Source: a virus. From it: DNA of 64,000 nt. Under the pieces are notes generated by a model that had not been told where the DNA came from, made no database searches, and saw only the letters and a list, made by a program, of their open reading frames with translations. The stretch lies in the IMG/VR virus record IMGVR_UViG_3300025073_000006. The stretch is one strand, 5' to 3'. Numbering within the stretch: the first letter of the stretch is position 1; each line of letters starts with the position of its first letter. Both the position numbers and the translations under genes were made by a program. Below, in pieces: positions 1 through 32,920 of this stretch.

Positions 1-44
1 GAGGACGGCTTCGAGCCCGACCCGTGGCCGGGGGAGGTGACGCC

Positions 45-365: not shown

Positions 366-381
366 GGAGACGTAGATCGTC

Positions 382-1780: not shown

Positions 1781-2355
1781 ACTGGCTCACCCTCCCCGAT
1801 TCACGCGCCCTGATCCTGCTCACCGACGGCGGACGGCCCGCCCTGATGCGGCTCGATCCCCGCGACCCCTACACTGGTGCCCAGAACGCCATACTCGAGA
1901 TCGAGGTCGTTACCAACTGGCGGGTCGACACGCGGACCCTCACCAGCGCCGACGACCGCGACGGCTGGTGGCTCCTGGTTGAGTGGGTCGGGCGGCTGGC
2001 GGTGCCCTGCACCTACGCCGAGTTCAAGACGGCGCCCACGCATCCCTACCCCTCCTCCCCGACCTGCGACGCCGGCAGACTCACCGGCCTGGCTGGCGTC
2101 AGCGTGACCAACGCGCTCGCCGCCGAGTGGCGCGGGCACCCGGCGGGCTCCTACCTCGTGTGGGCCTCGCACCCCGGCGCCCTCGGCGTCGTGCGCCGGG
2201 TCGGGTGGGAGAGCGTGCTGCTCCGGCTGGCGATGGACCGGCTCCCGGAGGCGACGCCCACGCCGCCGGCTGAGTGCCCCGTGTGCCACCGCGTCGGGCG
2301 GGTCCACCTCGCGCACGCATGCTCGTGCGGGTGGGTCGCGGACGTGACGCCGTGA
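1777..2355 (+). CDS. Hypothetical protein with C-terminal zinc-ribbon-like CPVCH..HACSCGW
   Basis: ATG 1777 overlaps the upstream stop (ATGA) and is in frame with ORF 1726..2355. Confidence 0.6.
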   Translation: MNWLTLPDSRALILLTDGGRPALMRLDPRDPYTGAQNAILEIEVVTNWRVDTRTLTSADDRDGWWLLVEWVGRLAVPCTYAEFKTAPTHPYPSSPTCDAGRLTGLAGVSVTNALAAEWRGHPAGSYLVWASHPGALGVVRRVGWESVLLRLAMDRLPEATPTPPAECPVCHRVGRVHLAHACSCGWVADVTP

Positions 2356-2726
2356 AGCTCACCCCCGCCCAGGCCCGCCGCCGCGACCGCAAGATCGCGC
2401 GGCGCCGCCATGCCCGCACGCTCCGAATCTTCGCTTCGCAGGTCGCCGCCCTGATGCCCGAGGAGCCCGAGTGGGTCGGCGCCGATCCCGCGGCGCCCGA
2501 GGACGCACCGCCCGCGGGTCGAGCGGTGTTCGTGGACGCCGCCGGCGAGGGCCTGGACATCCTGCTCGACTGGGCGACCGACCCCGAGGTGTACCGCCCG
2601 CCGATCCCGTCGCCAGAGGAGCCGCGTCCGCCGCGCGCCAAACCCCACTATCCCAGGGTGCCCCTCATGCTGGCGCTCCTGCTCGCCGCCGCGTCGGGCT
2701 CGGGCGGGCCGGGCGGTGAGCGGTGA
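2352..2726 (+). CDS. Hypothetical protein, Arg-rich N-terminus, hydrophobic C-terminal segment
   Basis: GTG 2352 overlaps the upstream stop (GTGA) and is in frame with ORF 2274..2726. Confidence 0.5.
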   Translation: MKLTPAQARRRDRKIARRRHARTLRIFASQVAALMPEEPEWVGADPAAPEDAPPAGRAVFVDAAGEGLDILLDWATDPEVYRPPIPSPEEPRPPRAKPHYPRVPLMLALLLAAASGSGGPGGER

Positions 2727-4219: not shown

Positions 4220-4521
4220 CCCCCTCCTCCGCCGACTGGACCTGCGCCCGCTGGTGGCTGTCCGCGCCCGACCCGACGCACGCGCCCGTGGCGCCGCTCA
4301 CCGTGGGCCGCGACATCGGACGCCTCGCGCTGCCCGAGGTGCTGTCCCCGCTCGACGTGGGCGAGGCACCGCCGGACGGCGTGGCGCGGCGGCACTGGGG
4401 CGAGGATGGCGGCGGGTGGGTCGCGTGCGGCGAGGGGTGCGCGCACGGGCCGGTGCGGGTGACGGCGATGAGCGCACGTCCGGAGCCGCGCCAGGTGGCG
4501 ATGTTCGGGGGCGGGGCGTGA
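4216..4521 (+). CDS. Hypothetical protein
   Basis: GTG 4216 overlaps the MTase stop (GTGA). It is the 3' part of track ORF 2941..4521, whose 5' part is a shadow of the MTase gene. Confidence 0.5.
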   Translation: MTPSSADWTCARWWLSAPDPTHAPVAPLTVGRDIGRLALPEVLSPLDVGEAPPDGVARRHWGEDGGGWVACGEGCAHGPVRVTAMSARPEPRQVAMFGGGA

Positions 4522-4562
4522 CTCGGCCCGCCCCTTGCACCACTCCTCACCAGGAGGCCACC

Positions 4563-4961
4563 GTGCCCAGCTACCGCGCCCTCGCTCGCCCCCCTCGCCT
4601 CGTCGGTCCACTGGTCGAGGCCCTCGCCGCCACCCACCGCACGCGGGCCCAGCAGGCCCGCATCCTCGGCATCTCCCGCGCCCAGCTCCAGGACCGGCTC
4701 TCGGGGCGGCGGGGTGCTCGCGGCTGGACCGACCGGCAGATCCGGTGGCTGGCCGAGCTGCTCGACACGTCCACGGCCGAGGCCCGGCGGCTGGTCGAGC
4801 AACACCGCGACATTGCTGTCGCGGTCGACAACACCGCCACCATCGGCATTCTTGACGATTGCACCCCCGAGCATGACGCCAGTGTCGCGGTTTGTGAACC
4901 GTGCGAGAACGTCGTGTCCATCGGTGCTTACGCCGAATGTGGCGCTGGCACCGCGACATAG
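4563..4961 (+). CDS. Putative HTH DNA-binding protein
   Basis: GTG 4563 follows AGGAGG (4552-4557) and is in frame with ORF 3939..4961. Segment AQQARILGISRAQLQDRLSG resembles a helix-turn-helix. Confidence 0.55.
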   Translation: MPSYRALARPPRLVGPLVEALAATHRTRAQQARILGISRAQLQDRLSGRRGARGWTDRQIRWLAELLDTSTAEARRLVEQHRDIAVAVDNTATIGILDDCTPEHDASVAVCEPCENVVSIGAYAECGAGTAT

Positions 4962-5085
4962 ATGTCAGGGAATTCGTGGGCATGGTTCTTGCGCGTGACC
5001 GGTTCGGGGGCACGTTCGGCGCCGCCATTGTGCGTGCTCGTCGAGAATGCGCATGGTTACGGCGTGGTTGCTTGATAGCGCGACA

Positions 5086-5113
5086 TTGGCACGGACCATG
5101 CACTACCTATGGT
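5086..5113 (+). promoter_or_regulatory. Putative sigma70-like promoter TTGGCA-N16-TATGGT
   Basis: Located in the lower-GC 190-bp gap between 4961 and 5154, about 40 nt upstream of ATG 5154. Confidence 0.3.
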
Positions 5114-5153
5114 CACGAGGCAACGACGAACCCCCGCCTCCGGAGACCACACC

Positions 5154-5459
5154 ATGACGACCACCGACACCACGACCCTGACCCCCTCCGTCGTCGCCGA
5201 GAACCTCGGGTACCTCAGCGACTTCAGGCGCGCCGCTCGCCGGGCGGCTCGCTGCCCCTCGCGCGATTCGGTCCCGGTCGTCGTCGTCGAGGGCAACGCC
5301 AAGCCCCGCGAGGTGGGCTCGCACGCGTACTACACCACGCAGGGCGGCACCCTCATCCACCACCCCAACGCCTACGGGCGGAAGTGCTACGACATGATCC
5401 GCTACCCCTCTACCCGTCACGTCGAGGTCGGCGCCGACTGGCGCCCCGTGGACTGGTAG
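5154..5459 (+). CDS. Hypothetical protein
   Basis: ATG 5154 follows GGAGA and is in frame with ORF 5109..5459. Protein-like composition. Confidence 0.55.
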   Translation: MTTTDTTTLTPSVVAENLGYLSDFRRAARRAARCPSRDSVPVVVVEGNAKPREVGSHAYYTTQGGTLIHHPNAYGRKCYDMIRYPSTRHVEVGADWRPVDW

Positions 5460-5465
5460 CCGCCC

Positions 5466-5509
5466 GCCCCCGCTCGGGGGCCCCGCAGAGCCCTGGGCGC
5501 TCCAGGGCT
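5466..5509 (+). terminator. Two tandem GC-rich hairpins after the stop at 5459
   Basis: GCCCCC-gctc-GGGGGC (5466-5481) and AGCCCTGG-gcgct-CCAGGGCT (5489-5509). There is no U-tract, so terminator function is uncertain. Confidence 0.3.
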
Positions 5510-5550
5510 GCGCCGGATTCCCGAGCCTCACCCGCACCCAGGAGCCCCCC

Positions 5551-5742
5551 ATGGCACGCGTCCCCACCTACCCAGACATCGAGACCGCCCGCTACGCCGA
5601 CGGGCAGGTGTTCGCCCGCTGGCTGCTCCGGTCGCTCCGGAGCGGGCGCATCGTCGCCCGCGGGTCGGACCGCGAGTGGTGGGAAGACGAGGCGCGGGCG
5701 CTGGACGACGCTCGGCTGATGGCCGAGGCCCGAGCCGCGTAG
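5551..5742 (+). CDS. Hypothetical small protein
   Basis: Track ORF with AGGAG 6 nt upstream of the ATG. Confidence 0.55.
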   Translation: MARVPTYPDIETARYADGQVFARWLLRSLRSGRIVARGSDREWWEDEARALDDARLMAEARAA

Positions 5743-5829
5743 AGTTCCCCGCTGTCCGCCCGCCCCGGCGGCCAGCGTCCAACCCAGGGGCACCGCGCCC
5801 GGCCGGGAGCCGGGCACCAGGAGCACACC

Positions 5830-6027
5830 ATGGACAACGACCATCGGTATGACTACGCCACCTGTCCAGGGTGCGGCCAGCGGTTTCAGTTGATCGACTG
5901 GCGCTGCGCCGTCCACCAGATCTACCACCCGGGCGGCGTGATCCCGGAGCCCGGGGTCGCGTGCAGCCCCATCGACATCTACCCGCCCGACGCCGACGCC
6001 GACCTCGGGGACGAGGAGGCGCTGTGA
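5830..6027 (+). CDS. Hypothetical small protein with CPGCG zinc-ribbon-like motif
   Basis: Track ORF with AGGAG upstream. CPGCG...C..H pattern. Confidence 0.55.
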   Translation: MDNDHRYDYATCPGCGQRFQLIDWRCAVHQIYHPGGVIPEPGVACSPIDIYPPDADADLGDEEAL

Positions 6028-6341
6028 ACCCGGTGGCTGTTCGGCTGTACGGCGAGATGATCACGGTCCGAGATGCAGGCGGGCAATCGCTGACCAGTCG
6101 GCCGTTCTGCGACGGCGGCCCCCGGTGTCTGTGCGCCCTGCACCGGGCCGCAAGGGCGGACGCCGAGCTCAACGAGGTCTTCCAGCGCGTGGCCGCGTTG
6201 CCGCTGGACGTGGACCCGGACGAGCGCAGGGCCCTGCTCGACCGGCTGGCGGATCTGATCGGGCGGCGGACGGAGAGGGACCGGCCACCGACGCACGAAT
6301 TGCCCTACGGCATCGAGGAGGGGGGAGACGATGCCGACTGA
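6024..6341 (+). CDS. Hypothetical protein
   Basis: GTG 6024 overlaps the upstream stop (GTGA) and is in frame with ORF 5871..6341. Confidence 0.5.
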   Translation: MNPVAVRLYGEMITVRDAGGQSLTSRPFCDGGPRCLCALHRAARADAELNEVFQRVAALPLDVDPDERRALLDRLADLIGRRTERDRPPTHELPYGIEEGGDDAD

Positions 6342-6672
6342 CCACGCCGGAACCCCCACGATCCTCGCCCGCCTGGGCCACGCCCTCGGCGGGCCGACGT
6401 ACCTCCTGGCTCGTCCGGATCGCCGCGTGGTGATTCGGGTGGCGTTCGACGAGCACGAGCTGGAGGTGGACGCGTCAAGCCTCGACGAGCCCGTGGGCGT
6501 CCTGCTGCGGGACGGCTCGATGCGCGTGCTCGACGACGTGGCATCAGGGGCCATCCGGCTCGCCTACGGGGCCGAGGTGGACGGGCGCAGGATCTGGCTC
6601 TACTCGGGCCAGCGAGACCGCGGACGGGCTGTGTGGACGCGGGCTACCCCTGCTCCCGGATCCGCGCCGTGA
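6331..6672 (+). CDS. Hypothetical protein
   Basis: Track ORF with GAGGAGGGGGGAG upstream of the ATG. Confidence 0.55.
   Translation: MPTDHAGTPTILARLGHALGGPTYLLARPDRRVVIRVAFDEHELEVDASSLDEPVGVLLRDGSMRVLDDVASGAIRLAYGAEVDGRRIWLYSGQRDRGRAVWTRATPAPGSAP
6642..6658. repeat. 17-bp direct repeat GGCTACCCCTGCTCCCG, copy 1
   Basis: Identical to 7119..7135. The two copies bracket gene 6713..7117. Confidence 0.8.
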
Positions 6673-6700
6673 GCCATGCCCGCAGACGGTCGGGCTTCCT
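6644..6700 (-). pseudogene. 3' remnant paralogous to the end of gene 7121..7507
   Basis: The minus frame ends ..AWLTARIREQG-stop, against ..GYLTAKVREQG-stop for 7121..7507. There is no start codon for a plausible gene, and the region is overlapped by plus-strand coding sequence. Confidence 0.35.
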
Positions 6701-6712
6701 CACCGTCAGGAG

Positions 6713-7117
6713 ATGACCATGTTCAATGAGGAAACGCAATACATGACCCCAATCACCACCCACCACGACGGCCTCGGTCTGAACGACCTGCTCGTGCTTC
6801 ACCGCGACGACCGCGACCCGGTCGCCGGCAACGCGAGTCACCGCTACGTCGGTGACATCGACGGCGCCCGCGTGCTGGACATCCAGTTTCAGCACGGGGC
6901 CCGGACGAAGCCCTCCTCGACGCCGGGCTGCCTGGAGGGGGCGGTGCTGACCGTCCTGATCGACCGGCTGGAGGGGATGCAGGCTGGCCCCTTCGCCTGC
7001 ATCGAGAACGACATCGCCCTCGCCCACATCCGCAGCGCCAGGGCCATCATCACGGACCGGGCCGCCCGGCGGAAGGCCCAGGGGGTGCTCGGCACGGACG
7101 CCGCGCACAAGTCGTAG
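6713..7117 (+). CDS. Conserved-looking small phage protein (134 aa), function unknown
   Basis: Track ORF with diverse composition and a lower-GC 5' end. Motif string HRY..G....IQFQHG...E..L..LIDRLEGMQAGPFACIENDIAL.HI..A......R..RK.QGV.GT recalls a widespread small phage family (family identity unverified). Confidence 0.7.
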   Translation: MTMFNEETQYMTPITTHHDGLGLNDLLVLHRDDRDPVAGNASHRYVGDIDGARVLDIQFQHGARTKPSSTPGCLEGAVLTVLIDRLEGMQAGPFACIENDIALAHIRSARAIITDRAARRKAQGVLGTDAAHKS

Positions 7118-7118
7118 C

Positions 7119-7135
7119 GGCTACCCCTGCTCCCG
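7119..7135. repeat. 17-bp direct repeat GGCTACCCCTGCTCCCG, copy 2
   Basis: Identical to 6642..6658. Overlaps the stop of minus gene 7121..7507. Confidence 0.8.
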
Positions 7136-7507
7136 CACCTTCGCGGTGAGGTAGCCCACCCGCTCGGTCCACGAGTCATCGGGCTCCCGGCCGAGCGCGT
7201 GGGCCTGGCGGATCATCTCCCGGTAGTAGGCCAACTCCCGGACGTGAAGCCGGGTGAGCACGGCCTCGGGGCGGCCGTCCGGGTCCAGCCTGACGCCATC
7301 GTACCGCTCGACGACGAGCCAACCCGCCTCGTCGCGGTAGGTGACCACCTGCCCAGGCGAGAGCCAGCCGGACCGCTCGTGTCGCTGGACGGCGAGGTGG
7401 TCGAGCGGGGTGAGGGGGATCCGGTCGGCGCCGTGGAGGACCCGGTCTGCGCGTAGCAGGCCCTCCACGACCCCGGCGCCGTGGGCGAGGGCAAGGCGGG
7501 CGCTCAT
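7121..7507 (-). CDS. Hypothetical protein
   Basis: ATG 7507 inside track ORF 7121..7573. Last gene of the long minus-strand block. Confidence 0.6.
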   Translation of the reverse strand: MSARLALAHGAGVVEGLLRADRVLHGADRIPLTPLDHLAVQRHERSGWLSPGQVVTYRDEAGWLVVERYDGVRLDPDGRPEAVLTRLHVRELAYYREMIRQAHALGREPDDSWTERVGYLTAKVREQG

Positions 7508-7517
7508 GGCCACCACG

Positions 7518-7967
7518 TCACGACCCGTCGGCTTCGAGGCGGGCGAGGTACTTCTGCACGTCGCGGAGAGCAATGGTCACCTCCCCTGTCAGGTCGTCGC
7601 GGCGTTCCTCCCGCCTCTCCTTGTCGGCGATGTGCTCCGCGACAACGGCCTCGACTGCTTCCAGACGGCCGAGTAGCGACTTTCCGCCCGCGTCGGGGGC
7701 GCGCACGATCCGGTCGAGGCCCTCGACTTGGCGGCGTAGGGCGGTGATATCCTCCTGGATTCTCGACCACGGGCGGGTCAAGGTCCGCCACGCCATCGCG
7801 ACGGCCACCACCATCCCGGCCAGCGTGGCGAGCCCGACCACGACCAGGACCACGCTCGACCACGCGGCATCAGCGGAGGGCGGCGGGACCTGGGCCTGGG
7901 CGATACCGGCAAGGAGGAGGACCCCGGCGAGGATGGCGGCAGCGCGCCTCACGGTGCGGCCGGACAC
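7518..7967 (-). CDS. Membrane protein with coiled-coil (lysis-cassette accessory, spanin-like?)
   Basis: N-terminal signal/TM segment AAAILAGVLLLAGIAQA, second TM VVLVVVGLATLAGMVVAVAMA, then a charged helical C-terminus. Adjacent to the holin-like gene. Confidence 0.6.
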   Translation of the reverse strand: MSGRTVRRAAAILAGVLLLAGIAQAQVPPPSADAAWSSVVLVVVGLATLAGMVVAVAMAWRTLTRPWSRIQEDITALRRQVEGLDRIVRAPDAGGKSLLGRLEAVEAVVAEHIADKERREERRDDLTGEVTIALRDVQKYLARLEADGS

Positions 7968-8389
7968 ACGGGGCAGGTTGGGCAGGGCGTCGCAGCCAGG
8001 GCGGCGCTCACGTCCTGCTGGGCCTGCTGAAGGTTGAACGCGCCGCCGTCCTTCACCATCGCGCCCGAAACGCCGATGTCATACTCGACGAGAGCGGCGA
8101 TGGTACGGTGATTCGCGCCGTTCTCGACGAGGTATTCCATCCCGAGGCTGCGCACGGGCGAGGCCGCGATCTGCGCCCGGAGCTCCAGCTCGCGCAGGGG
8201 CTCGGCGTTGACGGCCTCGCCCGTCTCCTCGACGACGCCCGCGGTTGCGGCCACCGTCTCGGGCGCGTCGGTCGAGATGGTGATCTCGGTGGCCTGCTTC
8301 CCACCAGCCTTCGCCCCGATGTAGATGCCTTCACCCACAGCGACGAGTCCGAGCGTGATCGCGATGTACAGCAGCATCTTCGACTCCAT
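7949..8389 (-). CDS. Membrane-anchored protein with Cys-rich C-terminus (lysis-cassette accessory)
   Basis: N-terminal TM LLYIAITLGLVAVGEGIYIG. C-terminus ..TPCPTCPVCPAAP. Confidence 0.6.
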   Translation of the reverse strand: MESKMLLYIAITLGLVAVGEGIYIGAKAGGKQATEITISTDAPETVAATAGVVEETGEAVNAEPLRELELRAQIAASPVRSLGMEYLVENGANHRTIAALVEYDIGVSGAMVKDGGAFNLQQAQQDVSAALAATPCPTCPVCPAAP

Positions 8390-8391
8390 GT

Positions 8392-8646
8392 TCAGTCCTC
8401 GTCCTCGTCGGACGCGCAGGGTATCGGCCGGGTCGGTCCGGGCGGCGTGCGCTCGGCGCGTAGCTCGGCCGAGGTGGGCGCCCGGTTCGGCGTCGGGAAG
8501 TTCCTCGCACCGTAGGCGACCGTGGCGCCCGTGGCGACCATCGCGAGCGCCATCGCCCCCTCACCCACGGCCTCGGGCGGCCACAGGAGCGGCAGCAGGT
8601 AGATGGCGACGACGCCGACGAGCCCGAGGAGGACGGTGCGGCTCAC
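8392..8646 (-). CDS. Holin-like small membrane protein
   Basis: 84 aa with two hydrophobic segments (VLLGLVGVVAIYLLPLLW, GAMALAMVATGATVAYGA) and a charged C-terminal tail. GTGA overlap with the upstream gene. Confidence 0.55.
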   Translation of the reverse strand: MSRTVLLGLVGVVAIYLLPLLWPPEAVGEGAMALAMVATGATVAYGARNFPTPNRAPTSAELRAERTPPGPTRPIPCASDEDED

Positions 8647-9125
8647 GGGTGCACCCTCGTCGCCCAGGCCGCCGGGTCGCGATCGATCAGGATGGTCACC
8701 TCGTGGCCCCCGGCCTCAAGCACGGCGATCTGCTCGTAGAGCCAGGTGCAGGCCGCCCGGGACTTCCTCACCGTCATCGCGTCCATGTTGCGGAGGAGGC
8801 CCGGCACGATGCAGCCCGAGGTATCCGCCTCGTCGTTTCCGGAATGAATCCGCACACCTCTGAAGCCTGGCACGCCGAGCAGCACGGGCATCAGGCGCCC
8901 GTACTTGGGGCTGTGCGTGGTCTTCACGGCGTACATGCCCGCCGGAATCGCCGTCTCGTGCGCCACCTTGATCGCCAGCACCTCGGCCGGGGTCATGTCG
9001 GCGTCGAGGCCTCGGTCCTCGTCCTCGACGGTGAAGCCGAAGTCCAGGCCCTGCCACCGGAGCGTCCCGAGCGTGGCCTCGGCGCCGAACACGTCGCGGG
9101 TGAGGTGGAGGGTGGGTGCGGTCAC
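8643..9125 (-). CDS. DUF5675-like phage protein (candidate cell-wall enzyme)
   Basis: Matches my recollection of the DUF5675 pattern: TLGTL...F.FTVEDEDRGL.......K..ETAIPAGMY.V....SPKYGRLMPVLLGVPGFRGVRIHSGN..ADTSGCI. GTG 9125 overlaps the upstream stop. Confidence 0.7.
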   Translation of the reverse strand: MTAPTLHLTRDVFGAEATLGTLRWQGLDFGFTVEDEDRGLDADMTPAEVLAIKVAHETAIPAGMYAVKTTHSPKYGRLMPVLLGVPGFRGVRIHSGNDEADTSGCIVPGLLRNMDAMTVRKSRAACTWLYEQIAVLEAGGHEVTILIDRDPAAWATRVHP

Positions 9126-9808
9126 GGCAGATAGCCGACCGGCTGCTGCACCTCGAACGTCCACGCCCGGAATTTCACCGTCGCCGCGCCAGCGACGTTC
9201 GTCTTCCGGCCCATCGCCACGAACCCGATCGGCGTCGTCGCCAACCCCCATGAGCCGGTCCTGGCGGTCGTCGCGATCATCACGCCCGCCGAGTTGAGCC
9301 CCCAACCCCGCACCTGCTGGATGGAGTTGGGCCCGTGCTCAAAGGTGACCACGGCGTGCAGCGTGTTGGGGTTCTGGTCGCCGTCGGTGTACGCCGCCTG
9401 GTGGCCCGCCCGCATCAGCGGCCCGCCCGCCGCGTCCCAGCACAGCCCGGCATGGCGCCAGGAGCCGGTGAGCGCGGTCGCGTCGGTGATGCCCATTGCC
9501 AGCCAGAGGTCGGACGTGGCGGGTGGTGCGGTGATGGTTTCGAGGACCATCTGGAGTCCCCATGGTCTCGCCGTGCTGAGTGCGGTTCCGGCGCGATCCC
9601 GGAGCGTGAAGAACCACACGGCTCCGAGCGGCACGGTGTCCGCACCCACCCCACCCAGTAGGGTTACGTCGGTGCTTGCTGCCGTCTCCGCGTCCATCGT
9701 CGCGAGCCCGCTCGGGTCACTTGTCGCGGTGGCGCTGCCGAGTAGCAGCCTGCGACGGAGCCCGGTCGCGTCGTGCGTGTCGGCGATGTTGCGCTGGATG
9801 GAGCCCAT
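9122..9808 (-). CDS. Hypothetical structural/tail-associated protein
   Basis: Track ORF with AGGAAGG upstream of the ATG. Located between the tail-fibre region and the lysis genes. Confidence 0.65.
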   Translation of the reverse strand: MGSIQRNIADTHDATGLRRRLLLGSATATSDPSGLATMDAETAASTDVTLLGGVGADTVPLGAVWFFTLRDRAGTALSTARPWGLQMVLETITAPPATSDLWLAMGITDATALTGSWRHAGLCWDAAGGPLMRAGHQAAYTDGDQNPNTLHAVVTFEHGPNSIQQVRGWGLNSAGVMIATTARTGSWGLATTPIGFVAMGRKTNVAGAATVKFRAWTFEVQQPVGYLP

Positions 9809-9817
9809 GGAACCTTC

Positions 9818-10261
9818 CTATGCGCCGTCGCGGTCGTCGGTCCAGTGGACGCGGATGGTGGTGACGGTCACGGTGCCGGTGTCGACGAGAACGGTGCCGT
9901 AGAGCTTACCCTTCGTGGTTTGCCCGGCCGGGACGCGTGGCTGCGTGTTGACGCTGAGCGTGCCCATCCGCAGCGACGTGTCGGTGAGCCCGGCCGCGAG
10001 GTCGAAGTAGGCAGACGGACCGAAGGCGATGTTGTCGCCGAGCAAGTCCCAGAACAGGATGATCTTCGCCTGCGTCGGCGCGCCCGCCGTGGCATCGAGG
10101 ATCACGTCGACCTGGGTGATCTTCGCCTGCTGGGGGAGTGCGCCGTGCAGGGTGTTGGCGTCGCGAGCCGTGTCCTCGTGGAGGAGCACGAGCTTGGTGA
10201 GCGCGAATGCCTGTTGGACCGCCGTCGGCTGGGTGTCGTTGATGAGCATTCCGGCGTTCAT
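9818..10261 (-). CDS. Hypothetical structural/tail-associated protein
   Basis: ATG 10261 in frame with track ORF 9818..10864, whose 5' part is a shadow of the sulfotransferase gene. Confidence 0.6.
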   Translation of the reverse strand: MNAGMLINDTQPTAVQQAFALTKLVLLHEDTARDANTLHGALPQQAKITQVDVILDATAGAPTQAKIILFWDLLGDNIAFGPSAYFDLAAGLTDTSLRMGTLSVNTQPRVPAGQTTKGKLYGTVLVDTGTVTVTTIRVHWTDDRDGA

Positions 10262-10263
10262 GG

Positions 10264-10926
10264 CTACCTCGACAGAGGGGTAGGGGTGATGAGGCGCTTG
10301 GCCTCGCGCCAGAGGTCGCCGTCGACGCGCTTGACGCGGGCCCGCTCGGCGTTGGTGGGGCGGGGCAGCGTGGGCGCGTCGGCCGGGCGCGCGTTCACCA
10401 GCGGGACCGGCACCAGGCCCATCGCCTCGATGGTGGCGTCGGACGCGTCGACGGGGACCAACTCGTCCACCAGCCAGTCCCCGGCGGCGTTCTGGAAGAA
10501 GTACCGCATCGCGTTCGCCCAGAGCCCCTCGCCCTGGGTCCACCTGAACCGGCGCTTCGGGTGGTTGGCCCAGAGGATGCCAGGCGCGTGGATGAGGCGC
10601 GCGGGGCAGTCGCCGGACAGCCACCCCGCGAGCACGGCCTCGAAGTCCAGGGAGCCACCGCCCCACTCGGCCAGCATCGCCCGCCGCCGGTCGTCGCTCC
10701 GCATGATGTGGAGGTAGAGGGACCGGTACCAGTCCGATGGCGGACGGAGCAGGCCGAACGTCGTCAGGTCCTTGCGCAGGGCCTGCGACGCACTCGTCGC
10801 TGGGGCGTGGGTGGAGGCGTAGAGGGTCCGCGCCCCGGGTGTCGCCAGGAGCATGGCCCGCCACCGAATGCCCGAGGTCTTCGGCATGTGGATGAGCAGG
10901 CGGCCGATGTCGGGGGCGAGGACCAT
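10264..10926 (-). CDS. Sulfotransferase-family protein
   Basis: IHMPKTSG resembles the 5'-phosphosulfate-binding loop (PKTGGT type). RPPSDWYRSLY resembles the 3'-phosphate-binding R.P..R..S.Y motif of PAPS-dependent sulfotransferases. Confidence 0.7.
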   Translation of the reverse strand: MVLAPDIGRLLIHMPKTSGIRWRAMLLATPGARTLYASTHAPATSASQALRKDLTTFGLLRPPSDWYRSLYLHIMRSDDRRRAMLAEWGGGSLDFEAVLAGWLSGDCPARLIHAPGILWANHPKRRFRWTQGEGLWANAMRYFFQNAAGDWLVDELVPVDASDATIEAMGLVPVPLVNARPADAPTLPRPTNAERARVKRVDGDLWREAKRLITPTPLSR

Positions 10927-10927
10927 C

Positions 10928-11299
10928 TCACTCCTCCAGGGCGTCCACCACAGGCCCCTGGCTGTTCAGCACGGTCAGGGTGTCCGGGATGGGGTCGCCG
11001 TTCGATTCACACGGCGCGTCGACCGTGAGGCCGAGGTCATCGTTGCGGTACGTCCGGTGGAAGGTGGTCGTTCCCGTGTCGGCCATCATGACGACGCTCA
11101 CGCCGTCCAGCGTGGCCTCCCATCCGTCCGGCAGCAGAACCGGCGGCCACAGGGCGAGGGTGAGGCCCTGCTCGATCATGGGCGCCAGGCACGAAGCCAC
11201 GCCGTTGACGACCTCCTGCAACCGGACGCCGGACTGAGCAGGGGGGATGCTCCATCGGATACTGGTGCCGTCGCTTTCGATTGTGATTGACCAGCGCAT
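10928..11299 (-). CDS. Hypothetical protein
   Basis: Track ORF with GGAGG upstream of the ATG. Confidence 0.6.
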   Translation of the reverse strand: MRWSITIESDGTSIRWSIPPAQSGVRLQEVVNGVASCLAPMIEQGLTLALWPPVLLPDGWEATLDGVSVVMMADTGTTTFHRTYRNDDLGLTVDAPCESNGDPIPDTLTVLNSQGPVVDALEE

Positions 11300-11318
11300 G
11301 TAGCCTCCGTGGGCGTGA

Positions 11319-11353
11319 GGGCCCGAACCCAGGGTATCCCATGGGCCGGGCCC
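11319..11353 (-). terminator. GC-rich hairpin after the tail-fibre gene
   Basis: GGGCCCG (11319-11325) pairs with CGGGCCC (11347-11353), with an inner CCC/GGG extension. It starts about 10 nt past the stop at 11363. Confidence 0.3.
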
Positions 11354-11362
11354 CCGTCATGG

Positions 11363-13525
11363 CTACACGATGGTGATGTCGCCGGCGGCGATGCAGGCGC
11401 CGGTAACGAGGTAGTGCGTGGAGTCGATGCCCTGGAACCGCACCCAGTCACCCACCGACGCGGTCGCCACGAGGCTGAGCGTGGTGCCAGTCATCGCGGT
11501 GCTGACGTTGTTGACCGAGACGACGCCGTAGAGGTGCGCCGCGCCATCCGAGATGGTGACGGCGTTGCCGCCGGTGTCCAGCGTCATGAACGTGAAGTCC
11601 AGGCCCTGAGCCGGCGTCGGCAGGGTGATGGCGTAGGCGGTCTGCTTGTCGACCGAGAAGACACCACCCGAGTCCGCGGCGGTGAGGGACCGCGTCGTCG
11701 TGATCGCGGCGGCCGTGTCGCTCGTGACGCGCAGCCCCTTGGCGGCCGTGGTCGTCCCGGGCGTGCCGGAACCGGTCGCGGCTCCCGGGGTGAGCGTGAT
11801 GTCGCCACCGTTCGCGTTGCCGCCCGTCCCCGCATCCCCGGCCGCGATGGCGACCGACCCACCCGCGCCGCCAGTCCCGCCCGCGCTGTTCCCACCGACC
11901 GCGCCGACGAGGCTGGCCGCTCCGCCCGCCCCGCCGTTGCCGGTGCCCGCCGAGCACGCCCCGCCAGCCCCGGCGGTCACGGCCGATGCTCCACCGGCCC
12001 CGCCCGCGCCGGCCGTGCCGTCGCTCTGCGCGCCGCCCGCGCCAGCCGTCAGGGAGGTCGCTCCACCAACCCCGCCGTTGTGGGCGCCGGACGACGCCGT
12101 GGCGCCACCGGTCCCGGCGGTGAAGGACACGAGGCCGCCAGCCCCGCCCGCAGCCGACGCACCAACGAAGGACTGCGCGCCACCGTTGCCGGCCGTCGCG
12201 GAGTAGGCGCCACCCGCCCCGCCCGCGCCAGTGCCACCCGAGGACTCACCGCCCGCCCCGAGGGTGACGGTGAGCCCGCCGCCGATGCCACCCGCGCCGG
12301 CGGCGCTGGAGTTCGTCTCGCCGCCGACCCCGCCGGTGACGGTGATCGTGCCGGCGTTCCCGCCCGCGCCGCCCGCGGCGGCGGCGGTCTGCGCGCCGCC
12401 TCGACCGGACGTGACAGCGAGCGCCCCGCCGTTGCCGCCCGCCCCGGTCCCGGCGGTGGACTTGGTCCCGCCCGCGCCCGAGATGAGGGAGGCGTCTCCG
12501 CCGTTGCCGGCGGCCGTCGACGTGAGCCCCGAGGACGCGCCAGCCGCGCCGGCCTGCACCGTCGCGGCGCCGCCCGCCCCGGAGGCGTGGGCACCCGTGC
12601 TGTTGGTCGCGCCACCCGCGCCACCGAGGACCGAGGACGCGCCACCCGCGCCACCGACCTGTCCGGACGCGGCGCCCGTGTTGGCCCCGCCCGCTCCACC
12701 ACGGAGGTAGGAGGCACCACCGGCGCCGCAGGCCACCGCGTTGGCGGCCGAGGCACCGGCACCGGCACCCACGTCGTAGGCGGCGCCGGCCTTGGCCGTC
12801 GTCGGGGTCGCACCCGCGCTCGGGGCGCGCTCGTAATAGTCCACGCCCGCCGTGTCCGTGGCCGCCGCCACCGTGGGCGCGCCACCACCACTGATCCCCA
12901 GGGCGATCACGCCGCCCAGGGCGAGGGCCATGTCGTCGGCCGCGAGGTTGAACCAGCCGGTGTTCTTGTCGGCGAGGAAGCTCAGCGACGGTGCCGCCGC
13001 CGTGCCCGCGCCGGCCTGCACCGTGCCGTCCTTGACGAGGACCGAAGACGCGTCGAGGAGCACGCCCTCGCCAGAGGTGGACTCGTTGACCTGGTCGGCC
13101 TTGATGCCGTCGACGCCGAAGTCGTCACCCGAGGTCGCGTTCGCGACGTAGCCCAGCGCCCGCGTGGTCGTGCCGTCGCTGAAGACCTTACCGCCCTCGC
13201 CCTTGTCGATCTGGGCGATGGTCGAAGCGGCGCTGTTCTTGACGGTGACGGTGTAGGCGCCGCTCGAGATGTTGACGATCGTGCGCTCGCCGTGCCACAG
13301 CGACGGCGCGGGCAGGGTGAGGTCGCGGTCAGCGCCGTTGCAGTCGACGTAGATGATGTCGGCCGCCATCCGGGTGGCCTGGGCGCCGCCGATGGTCAGC
13401 GTGACGGCGCCGGACATCGTGAGCGTCTGGTGGGCGCGCTCGATCACGGCCTCGCCGGACGAGGGGACGCGAAGGTTGAAGCGGCCGTGGGCGATGGCGT
13501 CGGATGCCATGAAACTGGGGCGCAT
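11363..13525 (-). CDS. Tail fibre / receptor-binding protein with long Gly-Ala-rich central repeat region
   Basis: ATG 13525 follows GGAG (the track ORF extends to GTG 13582). Non-repetitive N-terminal domain, about 330 aa of GAGG/GGAGG-type repeats, and a distinct C-terminal domain. Follows the ejection-protein genes. Confidence 0.8.
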   Translation of the reverse strand: MRPSFMASDAIAHGRFNLRVPSSGEAVIERAHQTLTMSGAVTLTIGGAQATRMAADIIYVDCNGADRDLTLPAPSLWHGERTIVNISSGAYTVTVKNSAASTIAQIDKGEGGKVFSDGTTTRALGYVANATSGDDFGVDGIKADQVNESTSGEGVLLDASSVLVKDGTVQAGAGTAAAPSLSFLADKNTGWFNLAADDMALALGGVIALGISGGGAPTVAAATDTAGVDYYERAPSAGATPTTAKAGAAYDVGAGAGASAANAVACGAGGASYLRGGAGGANTGAASGQVGGAGGASSVLGGAGGATNSTGAHASGAGGAATVQAGAAGASSGLTSTAAGNGGDASLISGAGGTKSTAGTGAGGNGGALAVTSGRGGAQTAAAAGGAGGNAGTITVTGGVGGETNSSAAGAGGIGGGLTVTLGAGGESSGGTGAGGAGGAYSATAGNGGAQSFVGASAAGGAGGLVSFTAGTGGATASSGAHNGGVGGATSLTAGAGGAQSDGTAGAGGAGGASAVTAGAGGACSAGTGNGGAGGAASLVGAVGGNSAGGTGGAGGSVAIAAGDAGTGGNANGGDITLTPGAATGSGTPGTTTAAKGLRVTSDTAAAITTTRSLTAADSGGVFSVDKQTAYAITLPTPAQGLDFTFMTLDTGGNAVTISDGAAHLYGVVSVNNVSTAMTGTTLSLVATASVGDWVRFQGIDSTHYLVTGACIAAGDITIV

Positions 13526-13629
13526 GTTGGGCTCCGGGCAGAACGAGGGAGAGGCAGCGTGCGGGCACACGCGGCCCGCCACGCACTACGAATACCACGA
13601 CTACCGAGAATCGACGTGATACCGCGCGG

Positions 13630-16600
13630 TTACGGGTTATCGGCGCGCTTCAGTTCCCGCTTGTCGGCGCCCGCCTTCCCCGCCGCCCGCTGCGTGTCGC
13701 GGCGGCGAAGTTCCTGGGCTGTGTCGACGAGGATCGGCTTGGCGATGAAGAAGCCCACGAGTTCGTCGCCGGGGGTGCGGCCGACGCGTGGACCCTCCAA
13801 CGTCTCCCGGATGTAGGGGTGCGTCTTCCCGGGCGTCAACCCCAGCGCCTCGCGGGTCGCCAGCGTGCCCCGCACCAGGCGCTCGACGGGGCCGTGGTCG
13901 AAGGAGCGATCCAGCGCCTGCATCGTGGAGATTCCGCGCCCCATCCCAGGCAGGGCGTGGCCGAGGTTCTGAATCCCCCACCACCGCAGCTCGTTCCCTT
14001 GCCCCACGACCCAGCGGTAGGGGATGTCAACGTCGTACCGCTTCGCCGGGTCGGGTTCATCCACGGGCCGCACGCCCAGGAAGTCGTCGACGATCAGGCC
14101 GCCCGTGAGCGCGCGGTCCAGAGCGATGAACCAGGGCGGCACCGTGTTGAAGTTGCCGCTGTCGATGTTGTAGGAGGTCGACGGATCTACACGGGTCGCG
14201 GACACGATGGGAGCCTGCCACCAGGGCGGAAGCCGGTTGGCGACCCTCGCGGCCGCTTTGGGATCGTCGAAGGCCGACAGCGCCCAGGAGATGATCTCGC
14301 CCCACAGCGTGAAGCCATCGACCGCGGGCTGTTGGCGCGTCACGAACGCGAGGCCCAGGCGGCGCAGGGGGTCGGCCTCGACATCGACGCCGCGCACGTC
14401 CACCCGCACGCCGTCCTCGATGAAGCGGCGGTAGGCCACCATGAGCTGCCGCTCGTAGTTTTCGGGCCTGACGATCCGGTACTCGTCCTCCAGGTAGAGC
14501 TGCTGCATGTCGCGGATGAGCCGCACCTGACCCGCGACCCTGGACGGGTGGTTGAGCAGGGTCCACCAGAACAGGGTCTGGTTGGCGCGCTCGTAGGCGT
14601 AGAACAGGCTCACCTGCCGCATGACGCGCTGTTCGAAGTCGGTCATGTTGCCGTAGTCGTAGAGCGCCATGCGGGCGGCGGCAGCGGCTTCGGCCGGATC
14701 CGCGCCCTTGGCGAGGTGGTCGAAGAAGACGTGCAGGCGGCCGTAGTTGTCGATCGCGGTGTAGGCGCTGACGAGTTGCTCCTGCCACCACTCGAAGGGG
14801 AGCAGGACGTTCTCGATCCACGTCCTGTGCTCGCGCCGGATGTCGTCGGTGAGCGCGCGGGCGGACTCGGCGTGAACGAACGAGGAGTTGAGGCCGTAGC
14901 TACGTGCCATCTGTCGGAGCTGCTCGGCCGAGTAGACCCTGCCGTCCTTGGTCACCAGGACGCCCCGGCCCTCGATGGCCCGCTGTTCGCCCCAGAGCCC
15001 GATGAACACGTCCTTGACGAGCTTCTGCCTGGCCGGGTTGACCTGGGCACCGAAGACGGCGCGCAACCCGTCGCGCTGGAACCACTGCCACTGCCCGTCC
15101 AGTATGTTGCCGATGTAGCTGAAGACGTTCGGCACCAGGATACCGACGACCATGCCGACCTTGATCCGGCTGAACAGCTTAGGCACGGCGTCGAAGACGA
15201 CAAGCAGTGCGTTCTCGGCGTGAAGTGCTGCACGCGAACCCACCGCCGCACCGGGGGCGGGCTCACGAAGGGGGGCGATGGTCCCGACCACCTGGCCGGA
15301 CCTGCGCGCGGTGCCGACCGTAGCCGCCTCGTCGAGCGCCAGCTTGATCTGCTCCTGGAACATCTGCGGGACCATGATGCGGCGCCCGTCGAGGTCCATG
15401 GCCGTCCACAGCCCCTCGCCGCGCTTCCATCCCCAGCGGTCCATGAGGTCGTCGGCGTAGAGCAGCGCCGCCATGTCGGGGTGGCCGTGGAACGCGCCGG
15501 GCGGGCCAGCCAGCCGCCGCCTGTCGACGGTCGGCAGATCCTGGTGAGGGGCAGGCGGACCACGGCGGACCACGCTGCCCGTGTACTGGTCGAGCGCGGT
15601 GCTGTCGTTCCAGGCCACGCGGGCGTTGAGGGCCGCCACCACATGGTCGTAGAAGCGGTCACGCAGAGGCAGGCCGACGTCCACGTCCCGGCCGCGCTCC
15701 GGGCCGAGCAGGCCGTACTCGGCAAGTTCGTCGGCCATGCGCCCCAGGATGTCGTGGGCGCGCATCCGGACGATGGCCTCGGCGAGGGCGACGTTCGGGT
15801 CCATCTTGAACGTCCGCCGCCCCTGAACGGCGTCCTTGATGCGGCGCCAGAGTGACTTGTCCGCGAGCCCGGTCGCGCGTCCCATGCCGGCCATGATGTC
15901 GAACAGCGTGGGCGGGCGGTTGGGGAGCGGCACCTGGGGCCCGTGCTCGGGCAGCCAGCGGCCCTCATAGAAGGCCTTGTAGAGCGCGACCCGGTCGTAC
16001 CACTGGAGGGTCGCCAGGATGTTGGCTTCGCTCGACCCGGTGAGGATGATGGCGATCTCGTTGGCGCGCAGCTCGACGACGCGGACACGGTCACCCAGGC
16101 CCACGGCGATGCGGCTGACGGCGTCCTCCACGTCGAGCAGCTCGGCCGGCGCGAGGTTGACTGCCGTGCGCCCGCGGTAACTGTCGAGGATGCGGAGCGC
16201 TGCCTCTTCCTCGGGTGACAGGCCGTGACGCCAGGAGTCAAGGGCATCCTGGAGGGCCACGAGGCGGACGGGGTTGAGGATGGCGTCGACGTTCGGCGCG
16301 TCCCCCGATAGGGCCTGGTGTTGGGCAAACAGGATGTCGACGATCCCAACGTCGTGCCCGTTCCGGGCGACGGGCGGGGTGAGCTCGTTCGCGACGCCGC
16401 GCAGGCTCTCCATGATGGAGCCGACGTCCTTGAAGCCCATGCGGCTGTACCAGGGCCGCATGGCACGCTGTGCCCGCACCCCGTTGCGGACCCAGTCCTG
16501 GGCGCCGCCGAGCTCGCGCGAATGCCGCTCGACGATGTCCTGGACATGGGGGTCCGGGTAGCCGGCCATCGGGCGCTCGACGATGAACGCCTTCGTGAGC

Positions 16601-19600
16601 GTGTTCTTGAGCTTGGACGGGATGGCGCGACCCAGGACGTCGACGAACGCGGCGGCGGCGGACGGCGACACGCTGGCGGTGCGCCGGGTGCGGCGGGTTG
16701 CGGCGCCGGCCTCGACGTCCAGGGCCAGCTCCTGCAACCGGTTCACCTCGGCGAAGGTGATGGTGTCGAGGTTCGCTGCCGGGTCGAGCAGGCGCTCAGG
16801 GACCAGCGACCGGCCGTAGATGGTGGCGATGGGTTCCGACGCGAGTTGGCGGGCGTAGATGCGCAGGCCCGACTGCTGAGCGGGCGTCAGGCGCACACTG
16901 GCGTCGCCCTCCCGCGCCGTCGCCACCAGGTTGGCCGGGGTGTCGCCGAGCGCGCCCGCGAGCCGGCTCAGGGCGGCCTTGCGGACGCGGCCCAGCCTCG
17001 CCTTGGGGATGACGGTGCGCGGGGTCAACGTGACCATGTCGACGCCGATCATCCACTTACGGGCGTCCTCGACCACCATGTAGGCCGCGACCTTGCTGAC
17101 CAGCTCGTCGAGCGGGACCTGGTCGCCAACCTCGAGGCCGAGCTCCTGCAACAGCTCCTCGTCACGCACCGCGGTCCGCTTGGCCTCGCGCGCCTGTCCG
17201 GCCTTCCGGATCTTCTCCTCGACGGCGTACTCGGGCCCGGGGTCGACACGGACGATCGGGAAGTCGGGCCGTCCAGCCTCACCGATGACGACGAGGCGAC
17301 GCTGAGCCACGCCCTCGGGGCGGAGCAGGCGATCCCACGAGGCGCGAACCTCGGCGGGGAGCTCGACCTGCTGGCCCCGGAATTGCGCCCACGTCTCACG
17401 CAGGCGTTCACCGACCTCGGCGACCGCGCGCCCGAGCGCGCCCGTGGGCTGCATCCGGAGCTCGACGTAGCGACGGAAGGCGTCGGCGGCCTGGTCCATG
17501 CCGAGGCGCGTCAGCACCGGCTCGCCCGGGGTCGCGCGCAGGACGTTCTCGACGGTGAGCACGTCGGGTTCGATGCGCGTGCCGTTCATGTCCTCGACGT
17601 GGGTTTCGAGGCCGAGCGCCGTGGCGATCTGCGCGGGGCTCTCGCCAGCGTTGGCGCGCTGGTGGATGTCGTCGACCATGTGCTGGGGCAGGCTGTCGTA
17701 GTAGACGGCGAGCAGGGCGCGACCGTCCTCGCCGATGAACTCCTGGAGGAGGTGGCCGTTCTCGTGCAGGAGGGTGCGCCAGTCAGCGCCCCTGAAGAAT
17801 TCCAGGAGCCAGCGGGCGTTGCCGGGCGTGCCGGTGCCAGCGGCGCCGAAGAACTGGCCGGTGAGGGGGGCGCCCGGAGCGCGGCGGGAGTGGGTGATCC
17901 TGGGGTCACTGGTCGGCCTTTCGTTTGCGATGTCCTTGATCTGCTCTGGCTTGAACACCACGAACGAAATTGGCGCTCCCTCCGGCGACGGGTCGGTCAT
18001 GACGACGCTGTCGTAGCCCATGTGCTCGGCTGCTTTCACGAAGTCGTCTTGGTAGTTCATGTACCAGTTCTGGCTTCCCTCGTTGTGTGCGGCACGGGCC
18101 GCATCGATCTCGCGCGACCGCACCGGCATCGCCTCATCGAGCGCGGCCTTCAATGCCGGCGACTCACTAAGCAGCGTGTTCTCAATGTCGTACTCATCGA
18201 TGGCGTCGTAGTCGATGGCGTCGCGGAGGGCGTCAGGGTTGCCGACGAGTGGTTCGCCGGCCTGTTCGGCGAGGTCGTCCACCCACGCCTTGACCGCCGC
18301 GTCACTGCCGTACAACTTCGTCGCCTCGGCTGCGAGCCACTCACGGAAGTCGGAGTTCTCCATGTTGCGCATCTCGCCGTATCGGCCCAGAACTACACGC
18401 CCAGAGTCGTCATCCCAGATGGCCTCCTTCGCCACCGCCTCAAACACAGCCGGATCGTTGAAGTCGGCCGGGTTTTCCATCCGCAGGTACACCTCGTACC
18501 GACGCCCAACACCATCGCCGCCGCCCCGGTAGAAGTCAGCGGTGCGCGCATCTGGCGAGAAGAAGTAGCCGTAGGCAGTGTCCTGCTGCCTGAACTCATC
18601 AATGTTGTCGAACCGTGAGCCATGGAACGCGCGGACGATGGCGCCGCCTTCGGGGATGGCCTCGACGTCGTCGAAGTTGATGACCGGAAGACCGCGACTC
18701 CACTCCTGGAACTCCGGGGTGCTCGGGGCACGGCGACTGAACTGCGCCTGCCCCTGTTCCAGCACCGACCGCCTCATCTCGGGCGTGAGGCGGATCATGT
18801 GGACCGGATCCGCGATCCTGGTCGTCTGGGCGTAGTCGAGGCCCGCGAGGTCAGGGTCGCCGTCTTGCGCCGCCCGACTCACGTAGCTGGCGGCGTCTTG
18901 CTCGGTCCCGAATTGCGCAACGTCCTCACCCGTGGACTGCCTGAATACGTGCCAGTTTTCGGCGGGCATGTCACGAGTCAGGCCGATGTCGCCGACCTCG
19001 ACCCTCGCCCCCCACTTCGCCGCGTACTTGTTCATCCACGCGGGGAGCATCTTGTCGTAGAACCCGATCATCCCTTGGCCTCCGACCGTGAGGTCGGGGC
19101 CCTTCAGGGATCCGGACTGCTCGGGCGACGCCATGATGGCCTTCACCATGTCGCCGCCGATGACGCCCTTCATCTCGGTGGCGGACTTCGCGTCGTTGTG
19201 GACGACCCTGCCGTCCTTGATGGCCTCGATGACGATGCGGGACTCCGCGCCTGGGCCCATGCTGGCCGTTATCGCCGCCTGCTCCTTAGGGGTCAGCACA
19301 CTCCACGGCTCACCGTACTCGTCCATGGCTCGCGTCTCGCGAGCGTCGCGCCACAAGTAGGGCGACATCGGCTCTTTCCGCCACCGGATCTCGTCGACCA
19401 CCTTGCGCACCTGGTCTTCGTACCGCTTGACCTGCTGAACGCCGGTGGTCCAGGACACCGCGTCGTAGTCGTTTTCGGCGGCAAACCTCAGCATCCGCTT
19501 GAGGACCATCTCGTGCCAGGTCTTCGCGAAGGGGGCGTCTGGGACCCGGTTGGCGTTGAAGGCGTCGAACTCGTTCCTCGCCCACTCATCGCGGGCCGCC

Positions 19601-28821: not shown

Positions 28822-28833
28822 GTGCTGCCTCTG

Positions 28834-31662: not shown

Positions 31663-31665
31663 GAC

Positions 31666-32911: not shown

Positions 32912-32920
32912 CGCGACCTC

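Follow-up and report, generated by a model that had tools for sequence, protein, structure and literature searches.

A candidate sulfotransferase of a divergent, mainly phage-borne family encoded in the putative tail-fiber region of a groundwater phage

Introduction

Sulfotransferases that draw on 3′-phosphoadenosine 5′-phosphosulfate (PAPS) include cytosolic enzymes such as human SULT1A3, in which Lys48 is the catalytic lysine, His108 the catalytic base, and Arg130 and Ser138 two ligands of the 3′-phosphate. In bacteria, NodH and Stf0 are carbohydrate sulfotransferases, small cytoplasmic enzymes acting on sugars. Here we examine a putative phage-encoded member of this superfamily, the 220-residue product of an open reading frame (ORF) at positions 10264..10926 on the minus strand of IMG/VR record IMGVR_UViG_3300025073_000006. 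The whole 64,000-nt stretch is referred to as the window, and all coordinates are given in its numbering unless another sequence is named. Taking sequence profiles, conserved residues, predicted structure, and gene order together, we consider it very likely both that the protein belongs to the PAPS-dependent enzyme class and that its gene is an accessory element of the locus.

Genes of the sulfotransferase family have been annotated before, in cultured phages as well as in giant viruses. Entries named “sulfotransferase family protein” are found in Prochlorococcus phage P-SSM7 (E3SP23), Synechococcus phage ACG-2014f, Ralstonia phage phiRSL1 (B2ZYD5), Pithovirus, and uncultured Caudovirales. These proteins are compact (mostly 196–285 aa) and have the same predicted fold as the window protein, to which they are 13–18% identical; their name presumably derives from profile matches. 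Other accessory phage genes alter the receptor glycan of the host, as do Oac of Sf6, an O-antigen acetyltransferase, and the Gtr glucosylation modules; we know of no case in which sulfation-based serotype conversion by a phage has been shown. The likeness of Oac and Gtr to the window protein lies in the proposed role only and does not extend to homology: they are membrane proteins that use acetyl-CoA or undecaprenyl-phosphate glucose and whose genes, in temperate phages, usually lie close to the integrase, whereas the window protein is predicted to be soluble and is encoded in the tail-fiber region. The role of sulfotransferases in phages “remains unclear,” and they have been discussed as auxiliary genes (PMC10580990). 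Our literature search found no experimental study of a phage sulfotransferase.

Family membership and enzyme class

A word-indexed homolog search started from the ORF returned the ORF itself and one relative at 45% identity (P0002), and repeating it with a 145-sequence profile brought almost no gain. An exhaustive HMMER search with the two-sequence profile of the ORF and P0002 recovered 199 proteins at E ≤ 1e-3, nearly all of them 180–280 aa long. The family comprises at least 199 sequence clusters; the window protein seeded it and is a member by construction, and the independent members that match the family profile are 16 IMG/VR loci and gp5.1 of Roseobacter phage SIO1. Where the source databases returned a name for a member, that name was “hypothetical protein” or “gp5.1” and nothing else.

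At the family level, the profiles converge on a single enzyme class. The only Pfam families that recur in a scan of 145 members are Sulfotransfer_1 (three matches), Sulfotransfer_4 (two), and Sulfotransfer_2 (two), with E values between 4.4e-5, the best, for Sulfotransfer_1, and 3e-3; scans of selected divergent members and of SIO1 gp5.1 gave a single weak Sulfotransfer_4 match. Searched against the sequences of the Protein Data Bank (PDB) at E ≤ 10, the family profile returned 26 matches, all with the sulfotransferase fold and made up of 24 sulfotransferases and retinol dehydratase. The best of these is Arabidopsis SOT18 (E = 1.1e-3), with its catalytic residues in register. Matches to the cytosolic enzymes stay at the profile level (E 1e-3 to 4e-2 only) and are not close by fold search, while heparan sulfate (HS) 6-O-sulfotransferase (5t03) is both a profile match (E 9e-3) and the best solved-structure neighbor. 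Among cellular proteins, the family hidden Markov model (HMM) picks up true Pfam Sulfotransfer_3 proteins (E 4.3e-14) that carry the same RDPWSWYAS string, and it also detects a neighboring cellular protein that matches Gal-3-O-sulfotransferase/Sulfotransfer_2 below Pfam thresholds. Placement of the window protein in the PAPS-dependent sulfotransferase superfamily is thus well supported, although it falls in none of the curated Pfam families Sulfotransfer_1, _2, _3, or _4.

The member from a cultured phage, SIO1 gp5.1 (Q9G0I0), scores 47 bits against the family HMM, with PKT, the histidine, and RNPxxWxxSxY in register. It is similar in size (188 aa) and is the best structural neighbor of the window model, but it is only ~22–30% identical to the window protein, has the loop sequence PKTATIA, and is annotated simply as “gp5.1.” Its gene (locus L024, 4974..5540, equivalent to AF189021.1 4688..5254) lies near the left end of the 40-kb genome among unannotated genes, with no fiber gene beside it.

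Conserved residues

The original prediction had called the protein a PAPS-type sulfotransferase on the strength of two motifs, IHMPKTSG and RPPSDWYRSLY, and both are located as it claimed. The alignment adds a histidine between them:

10870..10893, minus strand: 5′-phosphosulfate-binding (PSB) loop IHMPKTSG, residues 12–19, containing the catalytic-type Lys16
10807..10809, minus strand: His40 in S-T-H-A-P, candidate catalytic base from conservation and alignment
10714..10746, minus strand: 3′-phosphate-binding motif RPPSDWYRSLY, residues 61–71, with Arg61 and Ser69

We counted residues in an alignment of 145 homologs. In the PSB loop, K16 is present in 132 (with Arg in six others), T17 in 124, and the proline in 130. 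H40 is kept in 142 of the 145, and the 3′-phosphate-binding motif is nearly as constant (R61 in 141, P63 in 139, W66 in 138, Y67 in 140, and S69 in 139). K16, H40, R61, P63, W66, Y67, S69, and G91 form a near-invariant set, all of which the window protein has, and conservation across so many homologs argues that its motifs are not a chance resemblance. The closest relative, P0002, keeps MPKTS and LRxPxDWYRSL around a PSB loop of sequence PKTSCMW. Since K16, H40, R61, and S69 are intact in both proteins at only 45% identity, these four positions appear to be under purifying selection. The loss of PAPS-binding residues among homologs, which the original prediction had named as evidence against itself, is not seen.

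These residues have direct counterparts in enzymes of solved structure. In the family profile alignment, K16, H40, R61, and S69 correspond to Lys48, His108, Arg130, and Ser138 of SULT1A3, and the loop region H13-M-P-K16-T-S-G19 is aligned to Y-P-K48-S-G-T-T-W. The eight-residue spacing from the arginine to the serine is the same as that between R130 and S138 in cytosolic sulfotransferases, and the region of H40 matches K-S-H-L-P of SULT1A3 and the T-H-I-P histidine of SOT18. SULT1A3 (1cjm) and SOT18 (5mek) therefore share with the window protein the order and register of Lys, His, and Arg...Ser, together with a T/S-H-x-P context around the histidine, and from this correspondence we infer that H40 may act as the catalytic base. 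The cytosolic enzymes are larger (~295–350 aa), and their substrate-gating loops and RKGxxGDWK element are missing in the window protein. Carbohydrate enzymes of the Sulfotransfer_2 type share a PSB loop of the H-x-PKTGGT type and an R-D-P-x-x-R/W-x-x-S-x-Y motif; the window family is set apart from them by invariant positions of its own (W66, Y67, H73, G91, N178, and D202).

Predicted structure

An AlphaFold2 model built on the family alignment has a predicted local distance difference test score (pLDDT) of 93.9 and a predicted template modeling score (pTM) of 0.90. A strand at residues 9–12 leads through the PSB loop into a helix at 19–27, a second strand (55–60) ends at R61, and S69 lies within a helix spanning 63–75, so that each motif falls where a strand passes into a helix, an arrangement shared with sulfotransferases. 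A Foldseek search of the model against BFVD placed SIO1 gp5.1 first (E 2.6e-4, template modeling (TM) scores 0.56/0.64), followed by about a dozen viral “sulfotransferase family protein” entries at a probability of 0.87–1.0 and TM scores of 0.42–0.56. Against the PDB, the top three matches are HS 6-O-sulfotransferase (two entries) and NDST, all carbohydrate enzymes, at weak scores; further down, the weak fold matches include adenylate and other nucleotide kinases and tyrosylprotein sulfotransferase 2.

Several observations weigh against the explanation favored below. On its own, the window protein matches no Pfam family even at E ≤ 1, every Sulfotransfer profile included; it has no match among the PHROGs and no meaningful match in NCBIfam, and PDB sequences give it only chance matches (SGF29 and myotilin, E > 0.1). 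Neither the window protein nor any individually scored member reaches the Pfam threshold of Sulfotransfer_2. The best solved-structure match, HS 6-O-sulfotransferase, is weak (E 0.26, TM 0.43). The PSB loop of the window protein, PKTSGIR, departs from the family consensus PKTGGTW, with S18, I20, and R21 in place of G, T, and W; position 20 is T or S in 102 of the 145 members, and PAPS binding could suffer from the isoleucine found here. The GxxGxxK element of cytosolic sulfotransferases, part of their C-terminal RKGxxGDWK, is missing from the window protein; the aligned region reads N-x-R...Y..Y.D.EM in the family and PLVNARPADAP...TNAERARV in the window protein. Finally, with regard to the acceptor, we found no glycosyltransferase, polysaccharide gene, or conserved partner that accompanies the family from lineage to lineage. 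The comparison with the Sulfotransfer families that the original prediction proposed, and whose failure it counted against itself, thus has two outcomes: the single sequence matches no curated profile, while the family does, through seven matches among 145 members. The assignment holds once the family profile is used, for Pfam and PDB sequences and for the viral structural neighbors of the model.

The open reading frame and its expression

The ORF starts with ATG and has a G+C fraction at third codon positions (GC3) of 0.95 in a window of ~70% G+C, which marks it as a real coding signal in a G+C-rich phage. The same 220-aa product, with the same boundaries, was called independently on more than 20 metagenome contigs, and the identical protein sequence occurs on dozens of them (66 index blocks of the collection, with 24 contigs read). 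The same phage was found again in aquifer metagenomes on contigs of 57–79 kb. Neither a signal peptide nor a transmembrane segment is visible in the protein sequence, from which we infer a soluble, cytoplasmic product.

The gene is tightly packed between its neighbors. The stop codon of the upstream ORF (TGA, 10930..10928) lies 1 nt from its ATG (10926), and its own stop codon (TAG, 10266..10264) lies 2 nt from the start codon of the next gene (ATG, 10261). It is preceded by a putative ribosome-binding site:

10931..10937, minus strand: Shine-Dalgarno-like GGAGGAG, 4 nt upstream of the ATG and within the 3′ end of the upstream ORF

A scan of 7000..14000 found a promoter-like site on neither strand and no terminator-like site on the minus, coding strand. 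The 220-aa ORF with both motifs is accordingly confirmed by the ORF call, GC3, and independent gene calls, and the close spacing that translational coupling, as claimed in the original prediction, requires is present. The two short gaps, the GGAGGAG sequence, and the absence of a coding-strand terminator-like site together suggest co-expression with the surrounding late genes.

Comparison with relatives and neighboring genes

On the minus strand, the genes run from a 5063-aa polyvalent protein through a 720-aa putative fiber protein, a 123-aa ORF, the sulfotransferase gene, a 147-aa ORF, and a 228-aa ORF to a DUF5675 gene and three small proteins:

13630..28821, minus strand: polyvalent giant, 5063 aa, with two ART-PolyVal (PF18760) ADP-ribosyltransferase domains
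11363..13525, minus strand: putative tail fiber, 720 aa, N-terminal domain conserved, middle rich in Gly and Ala, C-terminus specific to the lineage
10928..11299, minus strand: 123-aa ORF directly upstream of the sulfotransferase gene, missing in the closest relative (L001) and in the marine relatives
9818..10261, minus strand: jelly-roll protein, 147 aa, directly downstream, with 14 homologs and an AlphaFold2 pLDDT of 88
9122..9808, minus strand: 228-aa ORF flanked by the jelly-roll gene and the candidate lysin gene
8643..9125, minus strand: DUF5675 protein, 160 aa, candidate endolysin (Pfam DUF5675, E 1.4e-22) and first gene of the lysis block

Four marine relatives (L158–L161, ~50% G+C) share this order, with a giant gene followed by a 155–200-aa fiber-anchor protein and a jelly-roll homolog, and contain no match to the sulfotransferase family HMM. 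Because the gene order is kept in relatives without the sulfotransferase gene, we regard that gene as an accessory insertion in a host-recognition module. Absence of the 123-aa ORF from L001 and from the marine relatives identifies it as a second accessory gene at the same site. The sulfotransferase gene is inserted together with the 123-aa ORF between the fiber and jelly-roll genes and is a fixed partner of neither. In L001, it stands immediately before the jelly-roll homolog with no 123-aa ORF between them, which suggested a functional pair with the 147-aa gene; we rejected this pairing, since the 147-aa gene is a core gene that occurs in relatives without the sulfotransferase.

Over its last ~1100 residues, the 5063-aa giant has homology to giant proteins of 4705 aa and more than 2671 aa that marine relatives encode at the corresponding position; the protein also contains a phosphoribosyltransferase-like stretch, VDNVVSTGATF, and is probably an ejected polyvalent protein. 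The 720-aa putative fiber has no Pfam or PHROG match. Its residues 44–162 are homologous to a 155-aa protein at the same position in L160 and L161. Its Gly/Ala-rich middle (~12276..12441) is ~70% identical at the DNA level over 166 nt to gp58 of Burkholderia phage BcepB1A, the sole nucleotide-level match of the fiber region among deposited phages, and this similarity may reflect repeat composition only. The layout described in the original prediction, with the sulfotransferase gene two genes downstream of the tail fiber, is correct, and the label of fiber itself depends on size, Gly/Ala-rich repeats, and the shared N-terminal domain only. Foldseek neighbors of the 147-aa model include a carbohydrate-binding module (E 3.9e-4), TNF/C1q-like trimers, and phage tail knob domains. 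Its conservation beside the giant and fiber-anchor genes in distant relatives suggests an as yet unnamed core receptor-binding or tail-tip protein, and it is probably a core tail or receptor-binding component of this phage group.

Downstream, DUF5675 has been described as a C82-peptidase-like lysin domain (2026 preprint). A Peptidase_M15_3 gene occupies the equivalent place in L001, which supports the preprint’s claim that DUF5675 is a peptidase-type lysin. Two of the three small proteins that follow have hydrophobic N-terminal segments in their translations. The “lysis genes” of the original prediction are plausible on this basis, namely a candidate lysin and small proteins with hydrophobic N-termini.

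The family in other phages and in cells

A degenerate DNA pattern for RDPWSWY located 22 IMG/VR stretches, of which 16 encode family members, on parent contigs of up to 297 kb. The same pattern in 185,579 species genomes gave mostly chance matches and about eight loci with true members, most on short contigs of metagenome-assembled genomes (MAGs); one cellular-assembly member comes from an isolate, Ideonella oryzae. No viral contig was matched when viral contigs were searched with the single window protein. Among cultured phages, tblastn with the window protein found SIO1-type phages only, and tblastn with the family consensus found no match. These results place the family mainly in phages, nearly all of them uncultured.

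Where members lie in structural regions, their exact position varies. In L028, the member begins where an 805-aa protein ends, at its stop codon, and is flanked by capsid genes in one direction and by genes for head closure and tape measure in the other. In four related siphovirus-like contigs (L006, L011, L017, and L019), the member is inside the head/neck module, at different positions in L006 and L011; in the latter it stands between terminase/head genes and a neck gene. On a 104-kb metagenome contig (L025, 10001..11675), the member is immediately followed by a PHROG transposase-family gene (E 2.7e-19), a neighbor that fits mobility of the sulfotransferase gene. All-against-all BLAST and HMMs of neighbor families revealed no neighbor family common across lineages. 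The gene resembles mobile cargo whose insertions favor late operons. The original prediction had considered a sulfotransferase at such a position unusual; this view is not supported for the family, given that members are found within structural modules of three or more unrelated groups of phages and that sulfotransferases are annotated in P-SSM7, ACG-2014f, and phiRSL1.

A separate observation concerns a contig from a Nannocystaceae MAG (L099, 4977..7406; CAYGMZ010000297.1), where three or four family paralogs stand in tandem, head to tail, on 8 kb. Such an array suggests that copies arose by local duplication and diverged in acceptor specificity.

Discussion

Our best explanation of the data as a whole, to which we assign a probability of about 0.7, is that the gene encodes a compact, soluble, PAPS-dependent enzyme and that it is accessory; action on a carbohydrate-type acceptor of the host envelope is its less certain part. 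The sulfotransferase gene would be expressed within the late structural/lysis operon. PAPS would come from the host, since the 36 larger ORFs of the window include no PAPS-synthesis gene (APS kinase, sulfurylase, and PAPS reductase families are all absent from them, the neighbors having been checked separately). By analogy with solved sulfotransferases, the loop P15-K16-T17-S18-G19 would hold the 5′-phosphosulfate of PAPS while R61 and S69 hold the 3′-phosphate; H40 would deprotonate an acceptor hydroxyl, and the sulfuryl group would be transferred, leaving 3′-phosphoadenosine 5′-phosphate. Lys16 and His40 would thus catalyze the transfer in the cytoplasm, presumably by the in-line chemistry of the cytosolic enzymes. 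The acceptor may be a cytoplasmic carbohydrate-type precursor of the host envelope, such as O-antigen, capsule, or a glycolipid. On this reading, the receptor displayed by infected or lysogenic cells would be altered by sulfation, leading to superinfection exclusion or keeping progeny from sticking to debris.

Taken by itself, the carbohydrate-type envelope acceptor is our best guess and less likely than not. We favor it because the nearest solved relatives are carbohydrate enzymes, because the gene is in a receptor-recognition module, and because phages are known to alter receptor glycans by other means. The original prediction offered receptor masking, exclusion, or modification of the fiber as possible functions; the genomic context fits all of these and separates none, and they are guesses. 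The broader idea that the family as a whole is a sulfation-based device for host range or exclusion, in which a late enzyme uses host PAPS to place sulfate on a receptor glycan or on the phage’s receptor-binding proteins, seems to us rather doubtful.

The main rival to an envelope acceptor is sulfation of the phage’s own virion. Here the target would be the fiber, the jelly-roll protein, or, in other lineages, a head protein, modified on Tyr, Ser, Thr, or an attached glycan with effects on virion charge, adhesion, or stability. Members repeatedly lie in structural operons close to virion genes (as in L028 and L011), the window gene stands between the fiber and the jelly-roll tail protein, and late co-expression would bring enzyme and virion proteins into the same cytoplasm at the same time. 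Proximity of this kind is, however, not matched by a stable association: no virion protein partner is conserved beside the gene across lineages, the position of the gene shifts even among related phages, and relatives with the same fiber-anchor and jelly-roll genes do without the sulfotransferase. The structural comparisons are similarly divided, with tyrosylprotein sulfotransferase 2 among the weak PDB fold matches but carbohydrate rather than protein sulfotransferases as the best solved-structure neighbors. We judge virion sulfation unlikely, though it deserves more weight than the alternatives that follow.

A second alternative places the target in solution. The enzyme would sulfate a host metabolite, a defense signal, or an antibiotic-like compound, or would simply drain PAPS, in the service of counter-defense or metabolic takeover. 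The protein is small, soluble, and cytoplasmic, the window carries other counter-defense cargo (a Tad1-like sponge and the polyvalent giant with its ADP-ribosyltransferase domains), and published work counts phage sulfotransferases among auxiliary metabolic genes, with no role assigned. Placement in a late structural/lysis operon in several lineages is nevertheless unlike that of an early counter-defense gene, the other loci examined show no linkage to defense-related genes, and we know of no defense signal that is inactivated by sulfation. A soluble target is accordingly improbable.

It is just as improbable that the protein is inactive, a decayed copy with a nucleotide-binding or structural role only, or that it is a P-loop kinase-like enzyme with another donor. 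The missing match to any curated sulfotransferase profile, the nucleotide kinases among the weak PDB fold matches, and the departure of the PSB loops of the window protein and P0002 from PKTGGTW would all fit such a protein. Against it stand the intact K16, H40, R61, and S69 of both proteins, the sulfotransferase fold of every PDB sequence-profile match, and the recurrence of the identical protein on dozens of metagenome contigs. A P-loop kinase proper was rejected, as the protein has no Walker A motif (GxxxxGK[ST]) anywhere, the loop context being G8-R-L-L-I-H-M-P-K16-T, and no kinase appears among the profile matches.

What is new here is modest: a divergent, mainly phage-borne family that Pfam, PHROG, and NCBIfam miss, to which SIO1 gp5.1 can be assigned, and which behaves as a mobile insertion in structural modules. 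The family profile gives annotators a usable tool, and SIO1 and its Roseobacter host, both in culture, offer a tractable system for the function of gp5.1. Should either receptor or virion sulfation prove true, a new chemical modification would join the known changes of phage–host recognition; otherwise, the protein is an ordinary accessory enzyme. Were the family indeed a host-range or exclusion device, it would be the first demonstrated case of phage-encoded surface sulfation and would provide a function for many viral auxiliary “sulfotransferase” genes.

Other observations in the window

Elsewhere the window encodes a terminase, an internal virion protein, a primase/helicase, a methyltransferase, an exonuclease, and a repressor-type protein, which identify it as phage DNA. 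Across the whole window (1..64000) there is no tRNA gene and no Rfam family at the gathering threshold. Most of the large structural proteins (942, 753, 724, 539, 437, 430, 428, and 358 aa) have no Pfam match, so this phage lineage is poorly charted. Immediately past the lysis block, an ORF on the opposite, plus strand (6713..7117) encodes a 134-aa homolog of the Thoeris anti-defense protein Tad1 (phmmer against PDB Tad1 chains, E = 3.3e-10). Pfam Acb2_Tad1_hairpin is matched by one of the 36 larger ORFs of the window, presumably this one, and the phage thus seems to carry a cyclic-nucleotide sponge.

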